The notes below the pieces were generated by a model. That model made no database searches and was not told the origin of the DNA. It saw only the letters and a program-made list of their open reading frames with translations. Shown one piece after another: positions 3,639-16,669 of a stretch of 37,903 nucleotides of DNA. The DNA lies in the NCBI GenBank assembly GCA_044344305.1, contig JBIJDE010000003.1, forward strand, positions 1-37,903. The letters run 5' to 3'. The position numbers and the translations under genes were made by a program. Source of the DNA: Armatimonadota bacterium (lineage in GTDB: Bacteria > Armatimonadota > Hebobacteria > CAIYQO01). Position 1 is the first letter of the stretch, and the number at the start of each line of letters is the position of its first letter.

Positions 3639-5636
3639 TTAAACAATGTGATGTTTATAACTACCCTTTTGACAAAATGTAGCATCAAATACAGCAGCAA
3701 TTTCTATTTCATTATCGTTGTTATGAATTAAATGTAATAAAGATCCATCAGTTGTTACACCATCTACCTCATCAATCATTCTTTTTAATCCTTTTGTCCA
3801 AACAATATCATCAGTTATATTATCTTCCCAGTGAAGAGTTAATCGTTTAGGAGAACTATATACTTCCTTTAAAGATGATACGCATGCATCTACAGATGGC
3901 ATTGGCATCCCTGGTGACACTGGAATAAGAACTGTGACAAATGATAGTTCATGCATTTGTTCCATAGATAGTTCCTGAGTCAACTGAGGAGCCTTAGTAT
4001 ATCCATTTGAACTTGGCAGCCAACCCCTTAGTGGTTCCATTTCACCTTCATGTAATGATAGTCGAACACCCTCTGGCATTCCCGGGAAAAGCATCAATAA
4101 ATTTGATCCTGCCCTGTCAGTTCTAACACTATTATTGGATTCGTCTATAGATACAGAACCGCATTCAAATTGCCAATTAATTTCAAGCGTAGGATTTTCA
4201 CTACTATTATGAAAACTTTCTACTTCATCAATAACAACAATAAATCTATCTTTCACCCATAAAACAGTTCTTGTGTGCGCTGCTTGAATACCAGTACCAC
4301 AACCATCTGGATAAGTCCATAAATACTGACCAGGCCAATAACCACCATCATAAGTTGAACTCACCAAATCATAACCTTTAATATGGTGATGACAGGTGTC
4401 ACGAGGATTAGTTCTCACCTGATTCCATCCATTTATATTCACCGTATTATGTGCGCGAGTTGATTTACCATGAATACCGATAGTTTCAGCAAAGTTATAT
4501 GTAAGAAAACCAGGATCGACTAATACAGGTTCACCAGATATATATAGAGAAATACCGTTTCGGCTCTGATGGCAATGTGCCCCACCCCATTGTGACGCAT
4601 CAAAAACTAAATAAGTGGCAGTCGATTTCCATGAATCGCGCATAAATATTTGCCCGGCATTTGGATAATATTTTGACAAAGGAGGTAATATATCCGGTAA
4701 TCCAGCCTTTTCACGGAATGCATTACGGTCGCGCCGCATTATAAAAAGTATATCATATAAATGGTTGCGGGCTGATTGACAATCATGCAACGCATTCCAA
4801 CCACCATCAGGAGCCATACAAGCAAGTGAGTAATCATACATACTTTCTACAACAGATGTTTCAACAGCTATTCCTATCTCCGGCATGCATCTCCCTAATT
4901 CCCAAAATCTTTCTGTTACATTTGCCATCCAATGATGATAACTGGGATTTCTTTCTATATGAACACCATCAGGCAATATCTGACGACGAAAAGCATCATT
5001 TAAAATTTTCATTCCAAAATCACGAATATCCTCAGCTATTGGTCGTGTTTCTAACAAAATCCCGCTAACTACCAATGTGTCAGCACTGGTCAATCTCCAA
5101 TTCCCATCATTAGGGATGTGCTGCTTTAAAAATTTCAACTGCAATTCAACTGACTCCAGCAAATATTCGGTGAAAGCATCATCAAAAAATTTGCTGGATA
5201 AAAATATTGGGAGAGTACCAATCCAGCCTGGCCATTGTGAAGTACCCATCCGAATACCAAGGTTTAATGTATTATCGTTTCCAATAGTTTTCCAATCATC
5301 AACAGTCGGATGATCCTGTATCCAGTCCTCAATATAATCTCTGGCAGCCAGGGCATATTTATCATCCCCAGTTGCCCGATAACATGATGCCAAAGCTGCC
5401 AGAAAAAAGAAACGATTAAGTTGGGCTGCCCATTCATAATCATCATGATGATTTCCTTGCCAATCAATATTCCGTCGACCCACATGGGTTGGATACTCAC
5501 CATTGCAACTATATACCACAATACCATCAACAGCATAATCCGCTACCTGTTGTATTGCTGAGTCCCACTCTGGAATACGATTTTTCCATACACTATCAAG
5601 TCGCTGTGCCTGAGCAAGAAATTGCTGTTTATTCAT
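3639..5636 (-). CDS. Heparinase II/III family polysaccharide lyase (PL12-like)
   Basis: EWAAQLNRFFFL, GNW, QILPDGVHIERNPSYH, GGAHCHQ...LVDPG and RAHNTV are typical heparinase II/III motifs. Confidence 0.88.
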   Translation of the reverse strand: MNKQQFLAQAQRLDSVWKNRIPEWDSAIQQVADYAVDGIVVYSCNGEYPTHVGRRNIDWQGNHHDDYEWAAQLNRFFFLAALASCYRATGDDKYALAARDYIEDWIQDHPTVDDWKTIGNDNTLNLGIRMGTSQWPGWIGTLPIFLSSKFFDDAFTEYLLESVELQLKFLKQHIPNDGNWRLTSADTLVVSGILLETRPIAEDIRDFGMKILNDAFRRQILPDGVHIERNPSYHHWMANVTERFWELGRCMPEIGIAVETSVVESMYDYSLACMAPDGGWNALHDCQSARNHLYDILFIMRRDRNAFREKAGLPDILPPLSKYYPNAGQIFMRDSWKSTATYLVFDASQWGGAHCHQSRNGISLYISGEPVLVDPGFLTYNFAETIGIHGKSTRAHNTVNINGWNQVRTNPRDTCHHHIKGYDLVSSTYDGGYWPGQYLWTYPDGCGTGIQAAHTRTVLWVKDRFIVVIDEVESFHNSSENPTLEINWQFECGSVSIDESNNSVRTDRAGSNLLMLFPGMPEGVRLSLHEGEMEPLRGWLPSSNGYTKAPQLTQELSMEQMHELSFVTVLIPVSPGMPMPSVDACVSSLKEVYSSPKRLTLHWEDNITDDIVWTKGLKRMIDEVDGVTTDGSLLHLIHNNDNEIEIAAVFDATFCQKGSYKHHIV

Positions 5637-8886: not shown

Positions 8887-11800
8887 GGTTGTATTCCTAT
8901 TCTTGCAGGGGTAATTGGCATCGCCGGCCATTCCCATTCGGCAATCTTTACAGTGTGCTTGCCGGCGGAAACGCCGAGGGCAATACTGAACTGTGGGGTA
9001 ATCGTACCTTTGCTGATTGTGGGTTCATCGGCGAAGCCGGCGCACCAGCGTACGCCATCCATCCAATAGCCGGGACGAACAATCTTCTCGGGCCAGGTGG
9101 TGACGATGGTGCGGACGCCGCCGTCCACTGTGCCGGTGATGCCGTCAGCAGTGAAAGTAAGGTCGAATGGCCCCATTCCGCGCACGCCCACGTTACCGTG
9201 GGTCAACTTCACGTATACAGGGGCGGGGGCGACGAAACGGATTTTCCCACCTTCAGCAATAACTTGAGACTCGGTCACAGCAGGGCCATTGATTTTATTA
9301 CTCTTGTAGTTGAGCTTGCTGCCGCGCAGCAGAACCAGCTCCGGCTTGCCGGTATTAGGTATACGCACTGTACCGGCTTGACCGCTAAACTCAATGCCAT
9401 CGCCTTTATATTCCAGTGACGTGGTCGATAGAAAGACGTAGTCGGTACCTTCCGCCGTGACAACCTTAGTGACACCAGGCGCGAGTTGCATCGCGATCGG
9501 TGTAGTCTCGCCAGCGCCGCGCGGATACAGCACCCAAGCTATCTCCTGACCAGGCGCGCTCTGCAAGCGCAGCGTCACATGCTGTTCCTTGCCCCCCACC
9601 CAGTCGCGCGACGTGCCGGTGGGTTTGTTATATGCTCCCACTTGCATCGGCAGGTCATCTTCGACCATCTCGAAGGCCGGGTTGGCGCGGTTAGTGAACA
9701 GCATATCCAGTTTAGTTGGCCATTCAGTATCGAGAGACACCTTTGCACCGTCCATAGTCACATTGGTTTTACGTCCGAGTAGACTGAGGTTAAACCAACT
9801 CGCAAGCTGACCACCCTGCCCTGAGCCCGTCGAAGGATCCACCTGGGTGCTGTCGCGGATGACGAAGTAATTCGCTCCCTTGGCGTTCGGGCTCTTGAGG
9901 AATGCGACCTGGCGGTCCCATGTGAAAGCGCCTTCCTTCTGAGCGAGCCCCGCGACGATTTCGCGCGGTCTGCCGAAATCCAGGTTGTACGCAGAATTTA
10001 CACGGTTTACATGCCCCTTCTGGTAGCCGGGGTTGATGAACCAGTCCGGATAACCGATCGACGCCCAGGCGTAGTCCATGTTCCCGTCGAAACAGGCATC
10101 AAGGATATTACTGTCGACCCAGTCGTGCGGTAAATCATTTCCTGGAGCGCCGAAGCGCAGGAAGTTCTTGTCGGGGAAACGGTTGTCCTTCGGCCCGCCA
10201 TACTGGTAAGGCTGGGGCGGCAGCAGCACCGCACCCTTGGCGTAGAGCATGAGGTTGCCCTGGTCCTGGTTCCAGTGACTCCAGTGATAGCCGCTGCGCA
10301 GGTAGAGTGCTGTTTCATCGGCGCCTTGATGCGCGCGGAAGATGACGCCATACCCGGGGTAAACGCGGCTGGTGAGTTTTGGCTCTTTCGCGGCAATCGA
10401 GGGCCGGATCATGGCCGGAATAGTAATGGCATCGGCGCCAGTGCCAATCATCCGGCCATTGTTTTCCCACGCCCACCGGAGGTTGGCGGCGAACTCCGGA
10501 TCCTTGTCCGCCACCGTGCCCATCGCTTGAAGGTAATGCGGTGACTGACCCACCGGTGAGTTAGCGGTGCCGGGAATGGTGCGCGAACCGTAGCGCGGGT
10601 CCACCGGTGAAAGCAGGTTGAGAAAGTAGTCGAAATCGGCTCGGTTGTAGGCCCAGGCACGCTCGGTGGCAGGCATCTTATCCGCAAGCACGCCCATCAG
10701 ACCACGCTCAATCTTACCATACCCGTGCATGTGATAGCTCGTGCCGTATTCCATCCACGCACCCTCGGGTGCCATGAGGGTGCCCTGCTTGTACGCGAGA
10801 AACGACCCCATATATTCGGCCCAGGTCTTGTGCATCGGGTGATCAGGAATCAGTGCCGCCAGGTTACCGCGGTCGGAAAGGCGCGCTACGCCCATATTTG
10901 GGTTGCCGTGGTGCGAGCCGTTGCCGGCGCTGGTTACGTCCGGTTCAGTTAGTAAGTACGAGAGCAAGGCCAATCGGGTACGCAGTTGCCGCCGTTCTTC
11001 AGCCGACAGTTTGGGGTTCGCCAGTGCCGCCTCGGCCGCGCCTACTGGGCCACCGAAGTCCCCAAGCGCTTGATGATGATGAATCGAAATCGACGAGACA
11101 ATGTAGTTGATGCTGGCCTGCAAACTGCGACCGGATCCGCCAGAAATGGTGGGCAGTTCACCCTGCGCCGGCTTCGCCAGCCAGTCAGGCGTGGTGAAGA
11201 CGCGCGGATACGCCACCTTGCCGTCGGGCCTGCCCTGAGCGGAGTCGAAGGGCCAATCCAGGATGTAATCCTTGTAGCGGTCAAGCCCGACCACGCCGTA
11301 GTAGATGCGCACAGCGTTGCCGACGCCGGCCGCTCCTTGAAGATCCTTCGAGGTCATGGCCGGCGGGGTCAGCACCAGCGCCCAGATGCGCCGGCCATAA
11401 GTGATCGACAACGCCGGGTCATGCTCATGACAGGAGAAGGGCGAGGTGTCAGAACGTGGTTCATTGAGCCACGAAGTTTGCGTGACGGACATAGGGAATT
11501 GCACACGCACCTGACCACCCTTCACATAGACCGGCATGCTGTTCGCGCGCCGCCAGTCACCCTTGTGCAGCGGGGCGATCATAGCCAGCGGATAGTTCTT
11601 GGGGTCAGCCTGCCGTGCCGCCGCCACGTGTACGCCGTAGTAAGAGACAAACTTGTCGTAGTAAATGCGCATGACCTTGCCATCGCCTGCCGCATCACCC
11701 AGAAGATCCTTTGATTTCATGGTCGGCGAGGTCGGCAGCAGCGCCCAGTCGCCCCAGCAGGAGTCATGATGGATGAAGCGCAACGGCCGGTTGTCTTCGG

Positions 11801-12812
11801 ACACGGGCTTGAGATTGGCATCCATATTGGCCGGCTTCGACTTCTCCTCGTCCGCCAGGCTAACGAAAGTAACCGGGCTGTTACCCTGGCCGGCAACGTT
11901 CATGTGCTCAGCCGCGTCCGGCTGCCAGCCCTTGGATAAATCAAGCTGCCAGAAGTCGGTGTCGGCCTCAACGCCGAGGTCATATTCTTCCCGCACCTGC
12001 GCAAATGGAGCGCGGTCGGTTACACGAATCATCGCCTGGTAATATCCGCCGCCGGTATATTCGAGTCGGTAGCATATTTCGGTGAAGACCGGGCCTTTGG
12101 CCGTCTGCATCACGGTGAATTTCTTGACCGGCCGCTTGCTCAGGATCGTACCAGCACCGCGCCATGCACCTGCCCCGAGCCCCATCGAAGGGTCTGCCCT
12201 GAGCCCCGTCGAAGGGTCTGCCCCGAGTTCCATCGAGGGACCATCTGGTCCGCGGAAAGCGAGGATCGGCGCGGGCAGCGTGTCCGCTGCGACCGGCTTG
12301 TTAAAATTCTTCTTCTGGAGCGCCGGCACCTTCACGGCCACCTGCTGGTTAGCGAGTACCAGCGCGTCGCCGTCCTTTGTCGCCGACACTGCCGGCGTAG
12401 CCGTCGGCTCTTTGCCGTCTGTGCGCAGCGTATAGGTTGCCGTGCCGTTCGGCGCGACCGCAGCCACAAAGGAGAGTGTGGCCTTCCCCTTCTCGCCCGG
12501 CGTCACCTGCACGGGCTGCGACTTGCCGGTGGCGTCGTCAACGCGCAGGCTCTTGCCACCGTCCTTCGGTAAGTCGATAGTGTAATTCACCAGGTCCGGC
12601 GGAAAGCCCCGCCCCGTCCAGTCCTTGAGGGTGATGGTCTGCGGCTCAGCCGCGGTCAGCAGGCTGCCAGCGAGTAGCAATGCCGCCAGCGCTATATATT
12701 TTTTGATCCGAGAAATATTGCCAGCCTGGACCGCCACTGGACCGGCCTCACCTTGTTTCTCGATAATCCGTTGGTGCCGCTGAATAATGCAGTTTTCAGG
12801 AGTCTTCTTCAT
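8883..12812 (-). CDS. Large secreted protein with heparinase II/III-like C-terminal module (putative polysaccharide lyase), paralog 1
   Basis: 1309-aa ORF with a hydrophobic signal-like stretch (KKYIALAALLLAGSLLTAA), HHGNPNM, PEGAWMEYGTSYHMH and GVIFR...SGYHWSHWNQDQGNLMLY. Highly similar to 12950..16669. Confidence 0.75.
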   Translation of the reverse strand: MKKTPENCIIQRHQRIIEKQGEAGPVAVQAGNISRIKKYIALAALLLAGSLLTAAEPQTITLKDWTGRGFPPDLVNYTIDLPKDGGKSLRVDDATGKSQPVQVTPGEKGKATLSFVAAVAPNGTATYTLRTDGKEPTATPAVSATKDGDALVLANQQVAVKVPALQKKNFNKPVAADTLPAPILAFRGPDGPSMELGADPSTGLRADPSMGLGAGAWRGAGTILSKRPVKKFTVMQTAKGPVFTEICYRLEYTGGGYYQAMIRVTDRAPFAQVREEYDLGVEADTDFWQLDLSKGWQPDAAEHMNVAGQGNSPVTFVSLADEEKSKPANMDANLKPVSEDNRPLRFIHHDSCWGDWALLPTSPTMKSKDLLGDAAGDGKVMRIYYDKFVSYYGVHVAAARQADPKNYPLAMIAPLHKGDWRRANSMPVYVKGGQVRVQFPMSVTQTSWLNEPRSDTSPFSCHEHDPALSITYGRRIWALVLTPPAMTSKDLQGAAGVGNAVRIYYGVVGLDRYKDYILDWPFDSAQGRPDGKVAYPRVFTTPDWLAKPAQGELPTISGGSGRSLQASINYIVSSISIHHHQALGDFGGPVGAAEAALANPKLSAEERRQLRTRLALLSYLLTEPDVTSAGNGSHHGNPNMGVARLSDRGNLAALIPDHPMHKTWAEYMGSFLAYKQGTLMAPEGAWMEYGTSYHMHGYGKIERGLMGVLADKMPATERAWAYNRADFDYFLNLLSPVDPRYGSRTIPGTANSPVGQSPHYLQAMGTVADKDPEFAANLRWAWENNGRMIGTGADAITIPAMIRPSIAAKEPKLTSRVYPGYGVIFRAHQGADETALYLRSGYHWSHWNQDQGNLMLYAKGAVLLPPQPYQYGGPKDNRFPDKNFLRFGAPGNDLPHDWVDSNILDACFDGNMDYAWASIGYPDWFINPGYQKGHVNRVNSAYNLDFGRPREIVAGLAQKEGAFTWDRQVAFLKSPNAKGANYFVIRDSTQVDPSTGSGQGGQLASWFNLSLLGRKTNVTMDGAKVSLDTEWPTKLDMLFTNRANPAFEMVEDDLPMQVGAYNKPTGTSRDWVGGKEQHVTLRLQSAPGQEIAWVLYPRGAGETTPIAMQLAPGVTKVVTAEGTDYVFLSTTSLEYKGDGIEFSGQAGTVRIPNTGKPELVLLRGSKLNYKSNKINGPAVTESQVIAEGGKIRFVAPAPVYVKLTHGNVGVRGMGPFDLTFTADGITGTVDGGVRTIVTTWPEKIVRPGYWMDGVRWCAGFADEPTISKGTITPQFSIALGVSAGKHTVKIAEWEWPAMPITPARIGIQP
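9817..9840. repeat. 24-bp in-frame hairpin insert (peptide DPSTGSGQ)
   Basis: TGCCCTGAGCCCGTCGAAGGATCC, preceded by CC. The same site is occupied in paralog 2. Confidence 0.8.
11231..11254. repeat. 24-bp in-frame hairpin insert (peptide PFDSAQGR)
   Basis: GGGCC[TGCCCTGAGCGGAGTCGAAGGGCC]AAT. The orthologous site in paralog 2 (~15320, TCAGGCCAATC) is empty. Confidence 0.88.
11655..11750 (-). repeat. In-frame, non-tandem diverged copy of segment 11295-11387
   Basis: DWALLPTSPTMKSKDLLGDAAGDGKVMRIYYD versus IWALVLTPPAMTSKDLQGAAGVGNAVRIYYG. Paralog 2 has a single Ser at this position. Confidence 0.85.
12171..12242. repeat. Three tandem 24-bp in-frame hairpin inserts
   Basis: TGCCCCGAGCCCCATCGAAGGGTC / TGCCCTGAGCCCCGTCGAAGGGTC / TGCCCCGAGTTCCATCGAGGGACC. 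Paralog 2 has one unit here. Confidence 0.88.
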
Positions 12813-12847
12813 CGTGTTCCCCTATTTCACCTTGCTGCAAGGTTGGA

Positions 12848-12908
12848 GGGTAAGGATTCGGTTGTTCCGCGCCTTACCCCGTGGGACGGACATCTTGCCC
12901 GTCCCACG
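12848..12908. repeat. Two adjacent intergenic hairpins, the second REP-like
   Basis: GGGTAAGG (12848-12855) pairs with CCTTACCC (12872-12879). CGTGGGACGG-ACATCTTGC-CCGTCCCACG (12880-12908) has a 10-bp perfect stem. No U-tract. Confidence 0.6.
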
Positions 12909-12949
12909 AGGAGGCATCAGAACCTACCGAATTATTCCCTTACCGGTTC

Positions 12950-15900
12950 CTATTTCTCCAGCGTCAGCGCAGTCCGCGCTGGCGGCGTTGGCATCGCCGG
13001 CCATTCCCATTCGGCGATTTTCACCGCGTGCTTACCGGCAGAAACACCGATGGCGAGGCTGAACTGAGGAGTTGCCATGCCTTTGCTGATTGATGGTTCA
13101 TCGGCGAAACCGGCGCACCAGCGCACTCCGTCCATCCAGTAACCCGGGCGGACTATTTTCTCTGGCCAGGTGGTAACAATAGTACGAATGTCGCCGTCTA
13201 CCTTGCCGATGATGCCGTCGGGAGTGAAAGTGAGGTCGAATGGCCCCATACCACGCACACCCATGTTGCCGTTGGTCAACTTCACGTATACAGGGGCGGG
13301 AGCGAAGAAACGAACCTTTCCACCTTCAGCAATAACCTGCTGTTCATTCGCTGCAGGACCATTGACCGTCTTACCCTTGTATTTAAGCTTGCTACCGCGT
13401 AAGAGGACCAGTTCTGGCTTACCTGTATTAGGTATACGCACTGTACCAGCTTGGCCGCTGAACTCGATGCCATCACCTTTGTATTCCAATGGCGTGGTCG
13501 ATAGAAATACATAGTCGGTGCCTTCCGTCGTGACGACCTTAGTTACACCCGGCGCGAGTTGCGTCGCGGTCGGTGTGGTCTCGCCGGCGCCGCGCGGGAA
13601 GAGTACCCAGGCGACCCCCTGACCCGGCGCACTCTGCAGGCGCAAGGCTACGTGTTGTTCTTTCTTATTGCCGTTAGTCCAGTCACGCGACGTGCCAGTG
13701 GGATTGCTATACGGTCCAACTGCAAGCGTCAGGTCATCTTCGACCATCTCAAAAGTCGGGTTGGCGCGGTCAGTGAAGAGCATATCCAGCTTGGTCGGCC
13801 ATTCGGTATCAAGCGACACCTTCGCACCGTCTATCGTCACATTGGCCTTACGCCCGAGCAGACTGAGGTTGAACCAACTCGCGAACTGACCACCCTGCCC
13901 TGAGCCCGCCTGTCCTGAGCCAGCCGAAGGGGCCGAAGGGTCCCCCTGGGTACTATCACGAATAACGAAGTAGTTCGCACCCTTGGCGTTCGGGCTCTTG
14001 AGGAACACAACTTGCCGGTCCCAAGTAAAAGCACCTTCTTTTTGACCAAGACCGGGGATCATCTTACCATTGACTCCGCCCCCCACGTTAGGAACCCCCT
14101 TGGCCCAGCCGGGAGGTGCGCCTGGAGTAATCCACCAATCGGGATAGCCGGTCGAATGCCAGGCATAGTCCACGTTCTGACCGAACTGCGCGTCGAGGAT
14201 GTTACTGTCAGACCAATCATAAGGCATTTCGGCTACCGGTGATCCGAACCTTAGGAAGTTCTTATCAGGAAAAGCAGGATCCTTTGGGCCGCCATATTGG
14301 TAAGGTTGCGGCGGCAATAACACTGCGCCTTTGGCGTAGAGAATCATATTCCCCTGATCATGGCCCCAGTGGCTCCAATGGTAACCGCTACGCAGGTAGA
14401 GCGCTGTTTCATCGGCGCCTTGATGCGCGCGGAAGATGACGCCATACCCGGGATAGACGCGGCTGGTGAGTGTTGGCTCTTTCGCGGCAATCGAAGGCCG
14501 TATCATGGCTGGAATGGTGATAGCGTCACCACCGGTGCCAACCATCTTGCCATTGTTTTCCCAGGCCCATCGAAGGTTGGCGGCTAATTCTGGGTCCTTG
14601 TCCGCCACCGTGCCCATTGCCTGGAGGTAGTGTGGCGACTGTCCGCATGGTGCATTAGCGGTGCCGGGGATGATACGCGAACCGTAACGCGGGTCTATTG
14701 GCGACAACAGGTTGAGTAAATAGTCGAAATCGGCGCGGTTGTACGCCCAGGCCTGATCCGCCTGCGGTGTCTTGTCAGCGAGTAGACCCATTATACCGCG
14801 CTCAATCTTTCCATACCCGTGCATGTGGTAGCTGGCGCCGTACTCAATCCATGCACCCTCAGGTGCCATGAAGGTAGCCTGCTTGTAAGCGAGGAACGAC
14901 CCCATGTAATCAGCCCAGGTCTTGTGCATCGGGTGATCGGGAATCAGCGCAGCCAGATTACCGCGGTCGGAAAGGCGCGCCACGCCCATGTTGGGGTTGC
15001 CGTGGTGTGAGCCGTTGCCAGCGCTGGTCACGTCTGGTTCGGTTAACAAGTACGAGAGCAAGGCCAGTCGTGTGCGCAATTGCCGCCGTTCCTCAGCCGA
15101 TATATTGGGGTTGGCCAGTGCCGCTTCGGCAGCGCCTACCGGTCCGCCAAAGTCCCCAAGCGCATGATGGTGATGAATTGAAATCGATGAAACGATGTAG
15201 TTAATGCTTGCCTGCAGACTGCGTCCGGATCCTCCTGAAATGGCGGGCAACGCTCCCTGCGCCGGCTTAGCCAACCAATCTGGAGTGGTGAAAACGCGGG
15301 GATAATTCACCTTTGCATCAGGCCAATCTAATACGTAGTCTTTATAGCGATCAAGACCTACTACGCCGTAATAGATGCGCACAGCGTTGCCGGTTCCTGC
15401 TTCTCCCTGAAGATCCTTTGATGTCATAGTCGGCGGGGTCAGCACTAATGCCCAAACGCGTCGGCCATAAGTGGTCGGCAATGCCGGATCATGCTCATGG
15501 GCGGAGAATGGTGATGTGTCAGAGCGTGGTTCTTTGAGCCACGAGGTTTGTGTGACGGACATCGGGAATTGCACTCGCACCTGTCCACCCTTCACGTAGA
15601 CCGGCATGCTATTCGCGCGTCGCCAGTCACCTTTATGCAATGGTGCGACTATGGCCATCGGATAGTTCTTGGGGTCGGCCTGCCGTGCTGCCGCGACTTG
15701 CACACCGTAGTAAGCGACAAACTTGCTGCCCCAGCAGGAATCGTGATGGATGAAGCGCAACGGTACGTCGCCACCAGTCTCGGTTTTTATATTAGCGTCG
15801 ATGCTGGCGGGTTTCGCCTTTTCCTCGACAGCCAGGCTAACGAACGTTGCCGGGCCATTACCCTGGCCGGCAACGTTCATGTGCTCCGCCGCATCCGGCT

Positions 15901-16669
15901 GCCAACCCTTGGATAAATCAAGCTGCCAGAAGTCGGTGTCGGTCTCAACGCCGAGGTCATATTCTTCCCGCACCTGAGCAAATGGAGCGCGGTCAGTGAC
16001 GCGAATCACGGCCTGGTAATAGCCGCCGCCAATGTACTCAAGGCGATAGCGGATCTCAGTAAACACCGGACCATTGGCTGTCTGAACCACTGTAAATTTT
16101 TTCACCGGTCGCTTAACAAGCATCGTTCCAGCACCACGCCATGCGCCTGTCCCGAGTTCCGTCGAGGGGCCGTCCGGGCCGCGGAACGCCAATATTGGTG
16201 CTGGTAGCGTATCGGCTGCGACAGGTTTGTCATAAGTATTATCTACAAGTGTAGGTACTTTCACTGCAAAATTCTGATTTGCGAGGACAAGGGTATCGCC
16301 ATCACGAATTGCCGATACTGTTGCCGGTGCTGCCTGATCTTTACCATCTGTTTGAATGGTGTAAACCGACGTGCCATTAACAGATACCGAGGCAACAAAA
16401 CTCAGTGTTGATTTCCCTTTTTCGCCCGGTGTTAATTGCACTGGCAATGACTTACCTGTGGAATCTAATACGCGCAAACCGGTGCCACCATCAGCAGGAG
16501 TTGGGATGATATAATTCACCAAATCCGGAGGAAACCCGCGACCAGTCCAATCTTTTATGGAAACCGTCTTCGGTTCAGCAAACACACTGATAGTAAGTAC
16601 TATCAGACTCAATAACGCAAACAATAGCTTTTTAGCTAAGTTTGAATTAAAAGTGAAGCAAATCATCAT
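12950..16669 (-). CDS. Large secreted protein with heparinase II/III-like C-terminal module (putative polysaccharide lyase), paralog 2
   Basis: 1239-aa ORF with a signal peptide (KKLLFALLSLIVLTISVFA-EP), the same motifs as paralog 1, and SHWGHDQG. The start overlaps the SGNH stop. Confidence 0.75.
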   Translation of the reverse strand: MMICFTFNSNLAKKLLFALLSLIVLTISVFAEPKTVSIKDWTGRGFPPDLVNYIIPTPADGGTGLRVLDSTGKSLPVQLTPGEKGKSTLSFVASVSVNGTSVYTIQTDGKDQAAPATVSAIRDGDTLVLANQNFAVKVPTLVDNTYDKPVAADTLPAPILAFRGPDGPSTELGTGAWRGAGTMLVKRPVKKFTVVQTANGPVFTEIRYRLEYIGGGYYQAVIRVTDRAPFAQVREEYDLGVETDTDFWQLDLSKGWQPDAAEHMNVAGQGNGPATFVSLAVEEKAKPASIDANIKTETGGDVPLRFIHHDSCWGSKFVAYYGVQVAAARQADPKNYPMAIVAPLHKGDWRRANSMPVYVKGGQVRVQFPMSVTQTSWLKEPRSDTSPFSAHEHDPALPTTYGRRVWALVLTPPTMTSKDLQGEAGTGNAVRIYYGVVGLDRYKDYVLDWPDAKVNYPRVFTTPDWLAKPAQGALPAISGGSGRSLQASINYIVSSISIHHHHALGDFGGPVGAAEAALANPNISAEERRQLRTRLALLSYLLTEPDVTSAGNGSHHGNPNMGVARLSDRGNLAALIPDHPMHKTWADYMGSFLAYKQATFMAPEGAWIEYGASYHMHGYGKIERGIMGLLADKTPQADQAWAYNRADFDYLLNLLSPIDPRYGSRIIPGTANAPCGQSPHYLQAMGTVADKDPELAANLRWAWENNGKMVGTGGDAITIPAMIRPSIAAKEPTLTSRVYPGYGVIFRAHQGADETALYLRSGYHWSHWGHDQGNMILYAKGAVLLPPQPYQYGGPKDPAFPDKNFLRFGSPVAEMPYDWSDSNILDAQFGQNVDYAWHSTGYPDWWITPGAPPGWAKGVPNVGGGVNGKMIPGLGQKEGAFTWDRQVVFLKSPNAKGANYFVIRDSTQGDPSAPSAGSGQAGSGQGGQFASWFNLSLLGRKANVTIDGAKVSLDTEWPTKLDMLFTDRANPTFEMVEDDLTLAVGPYSNPTGTSRDWTNGNKKEQHVALRLQSAPGQGVAWVLFPRGAGETTPTATQLAPGVTKVVTTEGTDYVFLSTTPLEYKGDGIEFSGQAGTVRIPNTGKPELVLLRGSKLKYKGKTVNGPAANEQQVIAEGGKVRFFAPAPVYVKLTNGNMGVRGMGPFDLTFTPDGIIGKVDGDIRTIVTTWPEKIVRPGYWMDGVRWCAGFADEPSISKGMATPQFSLAIGVSAGKHAVKIAEWEWPAMPTPPARTALTLEK
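13896..13943. repeat. Nested pair of 24-bp hairpin inserts
   Basis: TGCCCTGAGCCCGCC[TGTCCTGAGCCAGCCGAAGGGGCC]GAAGGGTCC. The inner copy (13911-13934) sits within the outer copy, with GCC repeated at both ends. Confidence 0.85.
16148..16171. repeat. 24-bp in-frame hairpin insert (peptide PSTELGTG)
   Basis: GCC[TGTCCCGAGTTCCGTCGAGGGGCC]. Corresponds to the third unit at 12219-12242. Confidence 0.78.

Follow-up and report, generated by a model that had tools for sequence, protein, structure and literature searches.

Two tandem paralogous genes of an Armatimonadota bacterium (assembly GCA_044344305.1, contig JBIJDE010000003.1; the window is the whole stretch analysed, 37,903 nt long) carry eight copies of a 24-nt unit, which is the subject of this report. 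The genes, recognised as open reading frames (ORFs) with their translations, are W1 (P0001; 8883-12812, minus strand; 1309 aa; GC 59.6%), a predicted secreted heparinase II/III-like polysaccharide lyase paralog, and its tandem paralog W2 (P0002; 12950-16669, minus strand; 1239 aa; GC 55.3%), and the two proteins are 81% identical in alignment. The copies are distributed over three sites, termed A, B and C, with five copies in W1 (three at site A, one at site B and one at site C) and three in W2 (one at site A, none at site B and two at site C). Their consensus reads (N)GCC-TGYCCYGAG-loop-YCGARGG with a loop of 4-5 nt, the wider family reads (N)GCC / TGCCCYGAG / loop / YCGARGG, and the ends of the unit are (N)GCCTGCCC and YCGARGG. 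The pattern CTGAG-N5/6-CGAAGG matched four times in the window against 0.00 expected from 100 shuffles, and CCGAG-N5/6-CGARGG three times against 0.05 expected from shuffles; together the exact patterns recovered seven of the eight copies. The remaining one, at 13896, is an interrupted outer copy, consisting of a 15-nt 5' half and a 9-nt tail with the 13911 copy inside.

Site A of W1 (12168-12239, plus strand) holds three head-to-tail units (12168-12191, 12192-12215 and 12216-12239), also returned by a repeat search of the window as three head-to-tail 24-nt copies at 12170-12241, and reads GPSMELGA DPSTGLRA DPSMGLGA. Its third unit, with a TTCCA loop, matches the single site A copy of W2 (16145-16168, plus strand; 24 nt), which has GCC on both flanks and reads GPSTELGT. 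The site B copy of W1 (11228-11251, plus strand; 24 nt, 5-nt loop) reads PFDSAQGR; its boundaries are uncertain by as much as 5 nt, with GGGCC at both sides, and its 22-mer recurs in other genomes. The site C copy of W1 (9813-9836, plus strand; 24 nt, 4-nt loop), which is the copy first placed at 9817, reads PSTGSGQG on the minus strand. Site C of W2 (13892-13939, plus strand) spans 48 nt in which the outer copy is split after ...GCC by the inner one, giving a layout of 15+15+9+9 nt that reads PSAPSAGSGQAGSGQG. This nested layout is also found in a distant paralog (L024, genome G001), and the W2 ortholog L002 shows a layout of 15+15+24. Head-to-tail copies are confined to site A of W1 and site C of W2 and L002, and the remaining window copies lie 0.9-1.4 kb apart. 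A minisatellite expanded by slippage (a variable number tandem repeat) was considered and rejected, as the copies are not all head to tail at one locus and are also found in other genomes.

Every copy amounts to exactly eight codons in the W1/W2 alignment, and a shorter loop is compensated by one extra base elsewhere, the total staying at 24 nt. The codon phase of the motif start on the coding strand is 0 at sites A and C and 1 at site B, and the difference between a 4-nt and a 5-nt loop shifts the frame of the motif's second half, with three readings as the outcome (PSTGSGQ, PSTGLRA/PSMGLGA and PFDSAQGR). With three readings of one DNA word, the likeness lies at the DNA level and not at the protein level. 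All eight copies share one orientation, antisense to W1 and W2. The original prediction, made by a model from the letters of the window, had described much of this, and its descriptive part was borne out: the eight copies are real, seven by exact patterns and the one at 13896 as a split outer copy; each adds 24 bp; loop and tail compensate in length; the orientation is single; at least two reading frames had been claimed and three readings were found; and the paralogs do offer a filled-versus-empty comparison at site B (one copy versus none) and at site A (three versus one).

Insertions in homologs and dispersed copies in other genomes

Sites A, B and C were compared across W1, W2, 46 homologs from a protein search and the coding sequences of 29 related loci, and a tree of 66 rows was built with FastTree with the insert columns left out. 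The majority of homologs carry no copy at any of the three sites. On the tree, 7 of 66 rows have an insert at site A (at least five changes of state), 6 of 66 at site B (at least six) and 11 of the 64 rows scored at site C (at least nine), the copy at site C of W1 being absent from 55 of 66 relatives, two of these unscored. P0003, the sister of W1 at 88% identity, is empty throughout, and site B is also empty in W2 and L002; an alignment of homologs for empty sites had been proposed in the original prediction. L002, the sister of W2 in another genome of the genus (91% identity), has one copy at site A and an expanded site C. The site A copy of L004 and L006 is offset by one codon from that of W1, W2 and L002, which points to separate insertion events. 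Six paralogs in genome G001 are filled at site C (L004, L006, L011, L024, L027 and L113), and the filled G001 paralogs include some that are only 30-40% identical to W1 and have empty orthologs elsewhere. Because most homologs are empty, the window copies are, on this comparison of sequences, insertions rather than ancestral linkers.

When mapped on the predicted structure of W1, all three sites proved to be low-confidence coil between secondary-structure elements (A, model residues 136-154; B, 468-473; C, 940-942), with a predicted local distance difference test score (pLDDT) below 50 over model residues 136-154 and with site C lying between two strands. The added octapeptides are rich in Pro, Ser, Thr, Gly and Gln and are tolerated in disordered surface loops. 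A conserved Asp-Gly (PDG, PDGK, GDGK) coincides with or adjoins each of sites A, B and C in W1, W2 and homologs; this may reflect a permissive turn or a preference at the DNA level for GCCGTC. GACGGY is found near the three sites in only some empty homologs and follows from the conserved Asp-Gly. At site B of L024, the same site as that of the 24-nt copy in W1, a 54-nt insert with the ends of the element and a longer interior was observed, possibly a longer form of the unit.

The assembly from which the window derives (G000; 5.1 Mb in 660 contigs, 82.9% complete, 42% GC) contains no motif elsewhere, all seven matches to CCYGAG...YCGARGG lying within the window, and two other genomes of the genus contain two copies, both in the orthologous gene, and none, respectively. 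The original prediction had named as the contrary outcome a motif confined to the two genes together with homologs carrying the same peptides at all sites; the first half is what the genome-wide search found in G000, where the motif has not spread beyond the two genes, whereas the homologs are mostly empty. The picture differs in other genomes, which were searched with the strict pattern CTGCCCYGAG-N4-6-YCGARGG and its reversed form as control. Genome G001 yielded 60 matches (31 forward, 29 reverse) and no control match. Across the window's phylum, 278 strict matches were found in 52 of 401 sampled genomes against six control matches, with the highest copy counts being 32 (G071), 30, 29, 23 and 19. 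In a second phylum, that of the metagenome-assembled genome (MAG) Anaerolinea sp., the motif was present in 59 of 301 genomes (58 of 300 without the unpublished G582) against one control match, with the highest counts being 40 (G549) and 19. Copy numbers among related genomes are patchy and burst-like. A scan of viral-class contigs, run without a chance control, gave 89 matches in 80 (L121-L200) of at least 120 stretches; these have the usual loops and carry a GC prefix in 59 of 89 cases and a G suffix in 78 of 89, neither of which is demanded by the pattern. A core of 21-22 nt is near-identical over the two phyla and the viral contigs, and the claim that the unit is a dispersed repeat at the DNA level is upheld by this core in many other genomes. 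Viral-class contigs are a possible vehicle for its spread between phyla. Among them, the IMG/VR contigs L145 and L125 contain four and three copies, respectively, with nested or adjacent partial copies in L145.

Outside the lyase genes, the unit is found in repeats, arrays and unrelated genes. Most copies in G001 form the centre of a palindromic repeat of about 140 nt resembling a miniature inverted-repeat transposable element (MITE), of which 19 copies were aligned (L041, L044, L046 ... L064); it has terminal inverted repeats and three internal hairpins, the middle one being the 24-nt unit, and some copies hold 2-5 tandem units, forming arrays with a 24-nt period. An Rfam scan of five loci with this repeat gave no matches at E <= 1. 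In G464, every copy examined lies within one repeat of 100-250 bp, and a hidden insertion sequence (IS) element was rejected there, as the surrounding repeat is just ~100-250 bp long. The clearest comparison comes from G549, where the spacer of one host repeat (a) is 1 nt when empty and 25 nt in six filled copies, and that of another (b) is 2 nt in two empty and 26 nt in two filled copies. As the filled-empty difference is exactly 24 nt in these non-coding repeats, the length is a property of the element and not the result of selection for an open frame, and the earlier proposal that copies are retained only when frame-preserving is not needed. The same comparison showed that the (N)GCC before TGCCC is part of the unit; the statement that each insertion follows CC or GCC is true of the sequence, and it fails as a description of the target, since (N)GCC arrives with the unit. 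Also in G549 (L083, L091 and L093), 'sister' hairpins of the form CACCCTGAGC / 4-5 nt / GCGAAGGGTC were seen to host the unit, a hint that CCTGAGC...CGAAGG hairpins form a wider superfamily.

The unit also lies in frame in unrelated genes, namely an RHS-like ORF, L119 and a second multi-copy family, in which L115 carries three copies at a place left empty in three paralogs. Between 0 and 5 nt are identical in the two flanks, with GCC or ACC for site A, GGGCC for site B and hardly anything for site C or G549, and no consistent target-site duplication was found across sites A-C and G549. Gene-borne copies are antisense in 8 of 8 cases in the window, in 16 of 16 ctgc-prefixed copies of the family loci and in L113, L114, L115 and L119, the single sense copy being that of L117, which reads PALSLSKG. 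Read antisense, the unit has no stop in any frame and encodes residues rich in Pro, Ser, Thr, Gly and Gln; read sense, it has a TGA in one frame and the others are rich in Leu and Cys. The orientation bias in genes may be due to selection, a mechanistic bias having also been considered.

Local history and candidate mechanisms

W1 and W2 have a GC content of 55-60% against 42% for G000, and the window is a mosaic of 36-68% GC: its two ends have 36-42%, the W1/W2 region 57-60% and the stretch at 18-24 kb 60-68%. In a genome of the same genus, synteny holds on either side of the locus but W1 is missing, and the tree groups W1 with P0003 and W2 with L002 within a clade that includes high-GC sequences. 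The GC mosaic and the synteny suggest that carbohydrate-active genes were imported step by step into a low-GC genome, and the window copies were most likely inherited with the GC-rich imported genes rather than being signs of activity in G000. In the segment of aa 165-288, where site A lies, W1 and W2 are 0.80-0.93 identical, compared with 0.70-0.85 for W1 and P0003, and site A is probably common to both paralogs through gene conversion, followed by local expansion. At site C, W2 differs from its ortholog L002 by duplications of 15 nt and 9 nt.

Together, we consider it likely that the eight copies are members of a widespread family of 24-nt insertion modules, inherited and not proliferating in G000. 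The unit enters DNA as a discrete, seamless 24-nt piece; since its length is fixed at 24 nt, the reading frame is never broken and eight residues are added. It occupies three loops, predicted to be disordered, of two tandem lyase genes. These genes would have been imported into the 42% GC genome with the copies as passengers, and site A would then have passed between W1 and W2 by gene conversion, with tandem duplication or nested insertion later altering the copy number locally. Primary insertion would have happened, or may still happen, in genomes where the family is abundant. How the unit is copied is a harder matter. The mechanism that we prefer, tentatively, is copying-in by a trans-acting enzyme that would recognise the conserved sequence and the short stem on single-stranded DNA; enzyme-free template switching at short GCC/GGCC homologies is the main alternative and is given somewhat less credence. 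The broader proposal of a single 24-nt, frame-neutral family with dedicated insertion machinery, present in at least two phyla and carried by phage-like contigs, is likewise held as a possibility short of the preferred mechanism.

Several observations weigh against this account. The case for gene import consists of GC content, synteny and tree position, and no donor was identified; near site C, W2 and P0003 are about equally similar to W1, and conversion was not shown there. Logan contigs from four lake or freshwater metagenome runs (X2, X3, X5 and X6) gave no rows with a 24-nt indel at the copies, such contigs being prone to drop rare variants. No mobilising enzyme was found. Y1 transposase genes (PF01797) are present in 5 of 5 genomes asked, and the motif was found within ~1.5 kb of them at 0 of 12 loci in these five genomes. 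G232 (81% complete, one contig) has ten motif copies and no PF01797 match, and G000 has nine PF01797 matches and no motif copies beyond the two genes. Flank homology of 0-5 nt leaves a defined target or defined ends unproven. The stem is no more stable than that of shuffled sequences, 36-177 of 200 dinucleotide shuffles folding equally well or better. Finally, the counts for the innermost stem pair, given below, pool related copies, and two old subfamilies could give the same pattern.

The same metagenome contigs break at site B (11218-11254), where several share only the element and then diverge on both sides. One X2 contig runs on after the site A copy of W2 (16169) into the start of another unit, and it may represent a strain with an extra tandem copy.

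The hairpin named in the original prediction is a modest one. Seven window copies folded as DNA at -0.6 to -3.8 kcal/mol (z from -0.87 to +1.16), and the stem, CCCY/RGGG, has four Watson-Crick pairs, so that against shuffles it is not thermodynamically distinctive; yet one stem pair covaries. In the class, 92 matches from 31 genomes have T..A at the innermost Y/R pair in 68 cases (by subtraction), C..G in 17, T..G in 2 and C..A in 5, a covariation that hints at a constraint on structure or sequence. Mobilisation in trans, as first proposed, remains an inference. The window genes include no transposase gene, in keeping with the earlier statement that no mobilising enzyme lies in the window, and Y1/HUH genes do not lie beside the motif, nor does their presence follow that of the motif from genome to genome: PF01797 occurs in 27 of the 31 genomes of the class, including ones without the motif. 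A mobiliser of the RAYT (REP-associated tyrosine transposase, REP denoting repetitive extragenic palindromes) or IS200 type was rejected on the same lack of adjacency (0 of 12 loci) and of association over the 31 genomes.

The absence of any transposase association is also what would be expected if the same element spread with no enzyme at all. A nascent strand ending in GCC or GGCC would slip onto another copy, copy one 24-nt period and return, the donor lying in an array or being flanked by the same bases and the short stem merely aiding stalling. Direct repeats of GCC, ACC or GGGCC do flank several copies at sites A and B, 24-nt tandem arrays and nested copies right behind an internal GCC are common, and sites go on changing by 15-nt and 9-nt duplications, as between W2 and L002. 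We nevertheless regard slippage as an unlikely explanation of the whole, since several insertions have just 0-1 nt of flank homology (site C and host repeat a of G549), near-identical 21-mers over two phyla and viral contigs are easier to understand if a protein reads the sequence, and copy numbers among relatives are all or little, as if activity were limited to some genomes.

Two further explanations are both far less probable than slippage. That the copies are a selected functional module, such as a binding site for a protein, a structured mRNA segment or a helpful flexible loop, and were spread by selection is improbable. The strong antisense bias of gene-borne copies, with its one sense exception in L117, the conserved core with one covarying stem pair and the repeated filling of the same loops would all fit such a module, but coding itself explains part of the bias through the TGA stop and the Leu- and Cys-rich frames of the sense reading, and the loops, predicted as disordered, show no conservation; most orthologs, including the nearest (P0003), lack the unit, and copies sit in unrelated non-coding repeats. 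More improbable still is a purely local origin, in which old linker loops of the lyases were reshaped by slippage and gene conversion between paralogs and converged on Gly/Ser/Pro-rich linkers. The restriction of the motif to two genes in G000, the clear slippage, the conversion around site A and the repeated filling of the same three loops in the family speak for it; however, the frame in which the one DNA word is read changes from site to site, most homologs are empty, and the identical core in non-coding repeats, unrelated genes and other phyla already contradicts it.

Known systems compared

The insertion module favoured above appears closest in kind to the small dispersed repeats (SDRs) of Nostocaceae, to which it is likened by description rather than by comparison with the SDR1-8 sequences. 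Elhai and colleagues (Genome Res 18:1484) reportedly described, in 2008, Nostocaceae SDR units of ~21-27 nt within larger repeats and genes, and are said to have judged them mobile from filled versus empty homologous sites; we know of no mobilising enzyme for SDRs. The 24-nt unit fits their size range of ~20-27 nt, is likewise present or absent in otherwise homologous sequence and is likewise dispersed (60 copies in G001, 40 in G549 and 32 in G071), although G000 has only eight, in two adjacent genes. In papers that cite this work, SDRs are presented as some 20 bp long, possibly mobile and partly tandem, and as not found in HIP1-enriched cyanobacteria outside Nostocaceae (PMC5861425, PMC2884548, PMC3116915). 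In contrast, the hosts here are PVC-type and Anaerolinea-type MAGs and not cyanobacteria, and cores that are nearly identical occur in two phyla and on viral contigs.

REPs and REPINs are imperfect palindromes of 20-40 nt present in many copies, some of them in genes (PMC3733652); they carry a GTAG or CGTC end tag, accompany RAYT genes and are thought to be handled as single-stranded hairpins (PMC3733652, PMC3116915, PMC6006769). The unit shares with them its size and the presence of some copies in genes. It differs in having no GTAG/CGTC end tag (CGTC occurs just inside some loops), no Y1/RAYT gene beside it at any of the 12 loci and no association with such genes over the 31 genomes, in a stem of only four Watson-Crick pairs whose folding is not distinctive, and in that 24-nt units insert singly. 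Rickettsia palindromic elements (RPEs), which the original prediction had rightly called several times longer, are described as selfish repeats of ~150 bp, limited to Rickettsia and found in frame in unrelated genes, the added peptide being compatible with the fold (PMC10969869). In-frame insertion in unrelated ORFs (the lyase family, the RHS-like ORF, the L115 family and L119) is shared with RPEs, whereas the unit has 24 nt instead of ~150 bp and its length alone preserves the frame at every site. Like MITEs, the unit is non-autonomous and dispersed, and it lies within MITE-like palindromic repeats of 100-250 bp in G001 and G464, but it has neither terminal inverted repeats beyond the 4-bp stem nor a consistent target-site duplication and, at 24 nt, is below the usual MITE size.

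A literature search with motif-derived peptides and for small dispersed repeats, limited in extent, found no description of the motif, and by title and abstract none of the listed papers on small dispersed repeats dealt with the phyla found here; the 24-nt module is a newly described member of the kind of very small dispersed repeats. How repeats too small to encode or flank anything are copied has been a question since the cyanobacterial SDRs, and the many clean filled/empty pairs in genes, in repeats and in several phyla make the ends of the unit, its choice of target and candidate enzymes testable. If dedicated machinery exists, no mobile DNA outside cyanobacteria would be smaller, and the unit would repeatedly write eight-residue loops into secreted enzymes and also nest into other repeats. 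Additions fixed at eight residues readily supply secreted carbohydrate-active enzymes with new loop variants. Odd peptides of this kind recur in proteins predicted from metagenomes, and the module probably explains them. For the present locus, the module would mark W1 and W2 as imports into a low-GC genome.

Host genes and their neighbourhood

Neither W1 nor W2 matched a Pfam family, the Hepar_II_III models included, at E <= 0.01, and the assignment as lyases comes from structure prediction. An AlphaFold model of W1 aa 57-1110 (pLDDT 80.6) had its best Foldseek matches among heparinase III/II and PL17/PL33 lyases (E from 7.5e-12 to 1e-8), with targets including 4mmi, 5jmf, 4fnv and 2fuq and TM-scores of 0.38-0.54 per target length. 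The model shows the alpha/alpha toroid plus beta-sandwich fold of solved heparinases, from which a role as a lyase is predicted. The neighbours of W1 and W2 comprise a gene at 3639-5636 that does match Pfam heparinase II/III, four sulfatases, GH1 and GH43 glycoside hydrolases, GDSL and SASA esterases and pectate-lyase-like proteins, a composition consistent with a polysaccharide-utilisation cluster.

The remaining length difference between W1 and W2 is explained by an internal duplication of 31 aa in W1, seen in the W1/W2 alignment (aa 355-385; 11658-11750, minus strand), whose source segment is at about aa 476-506 and which is not the 24-nt element. Among 48 aligned proteins it is shared only with P0003, it appears as a gap in the blastn alignment to L002, and in the model it corresponds to model residues 298-328, which have low pLDDT and are predicted to be disordered. 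At the far end of the window, a PIN-domain gene (PF13470; 37500-37901, plus strand) is truncated by the window end.

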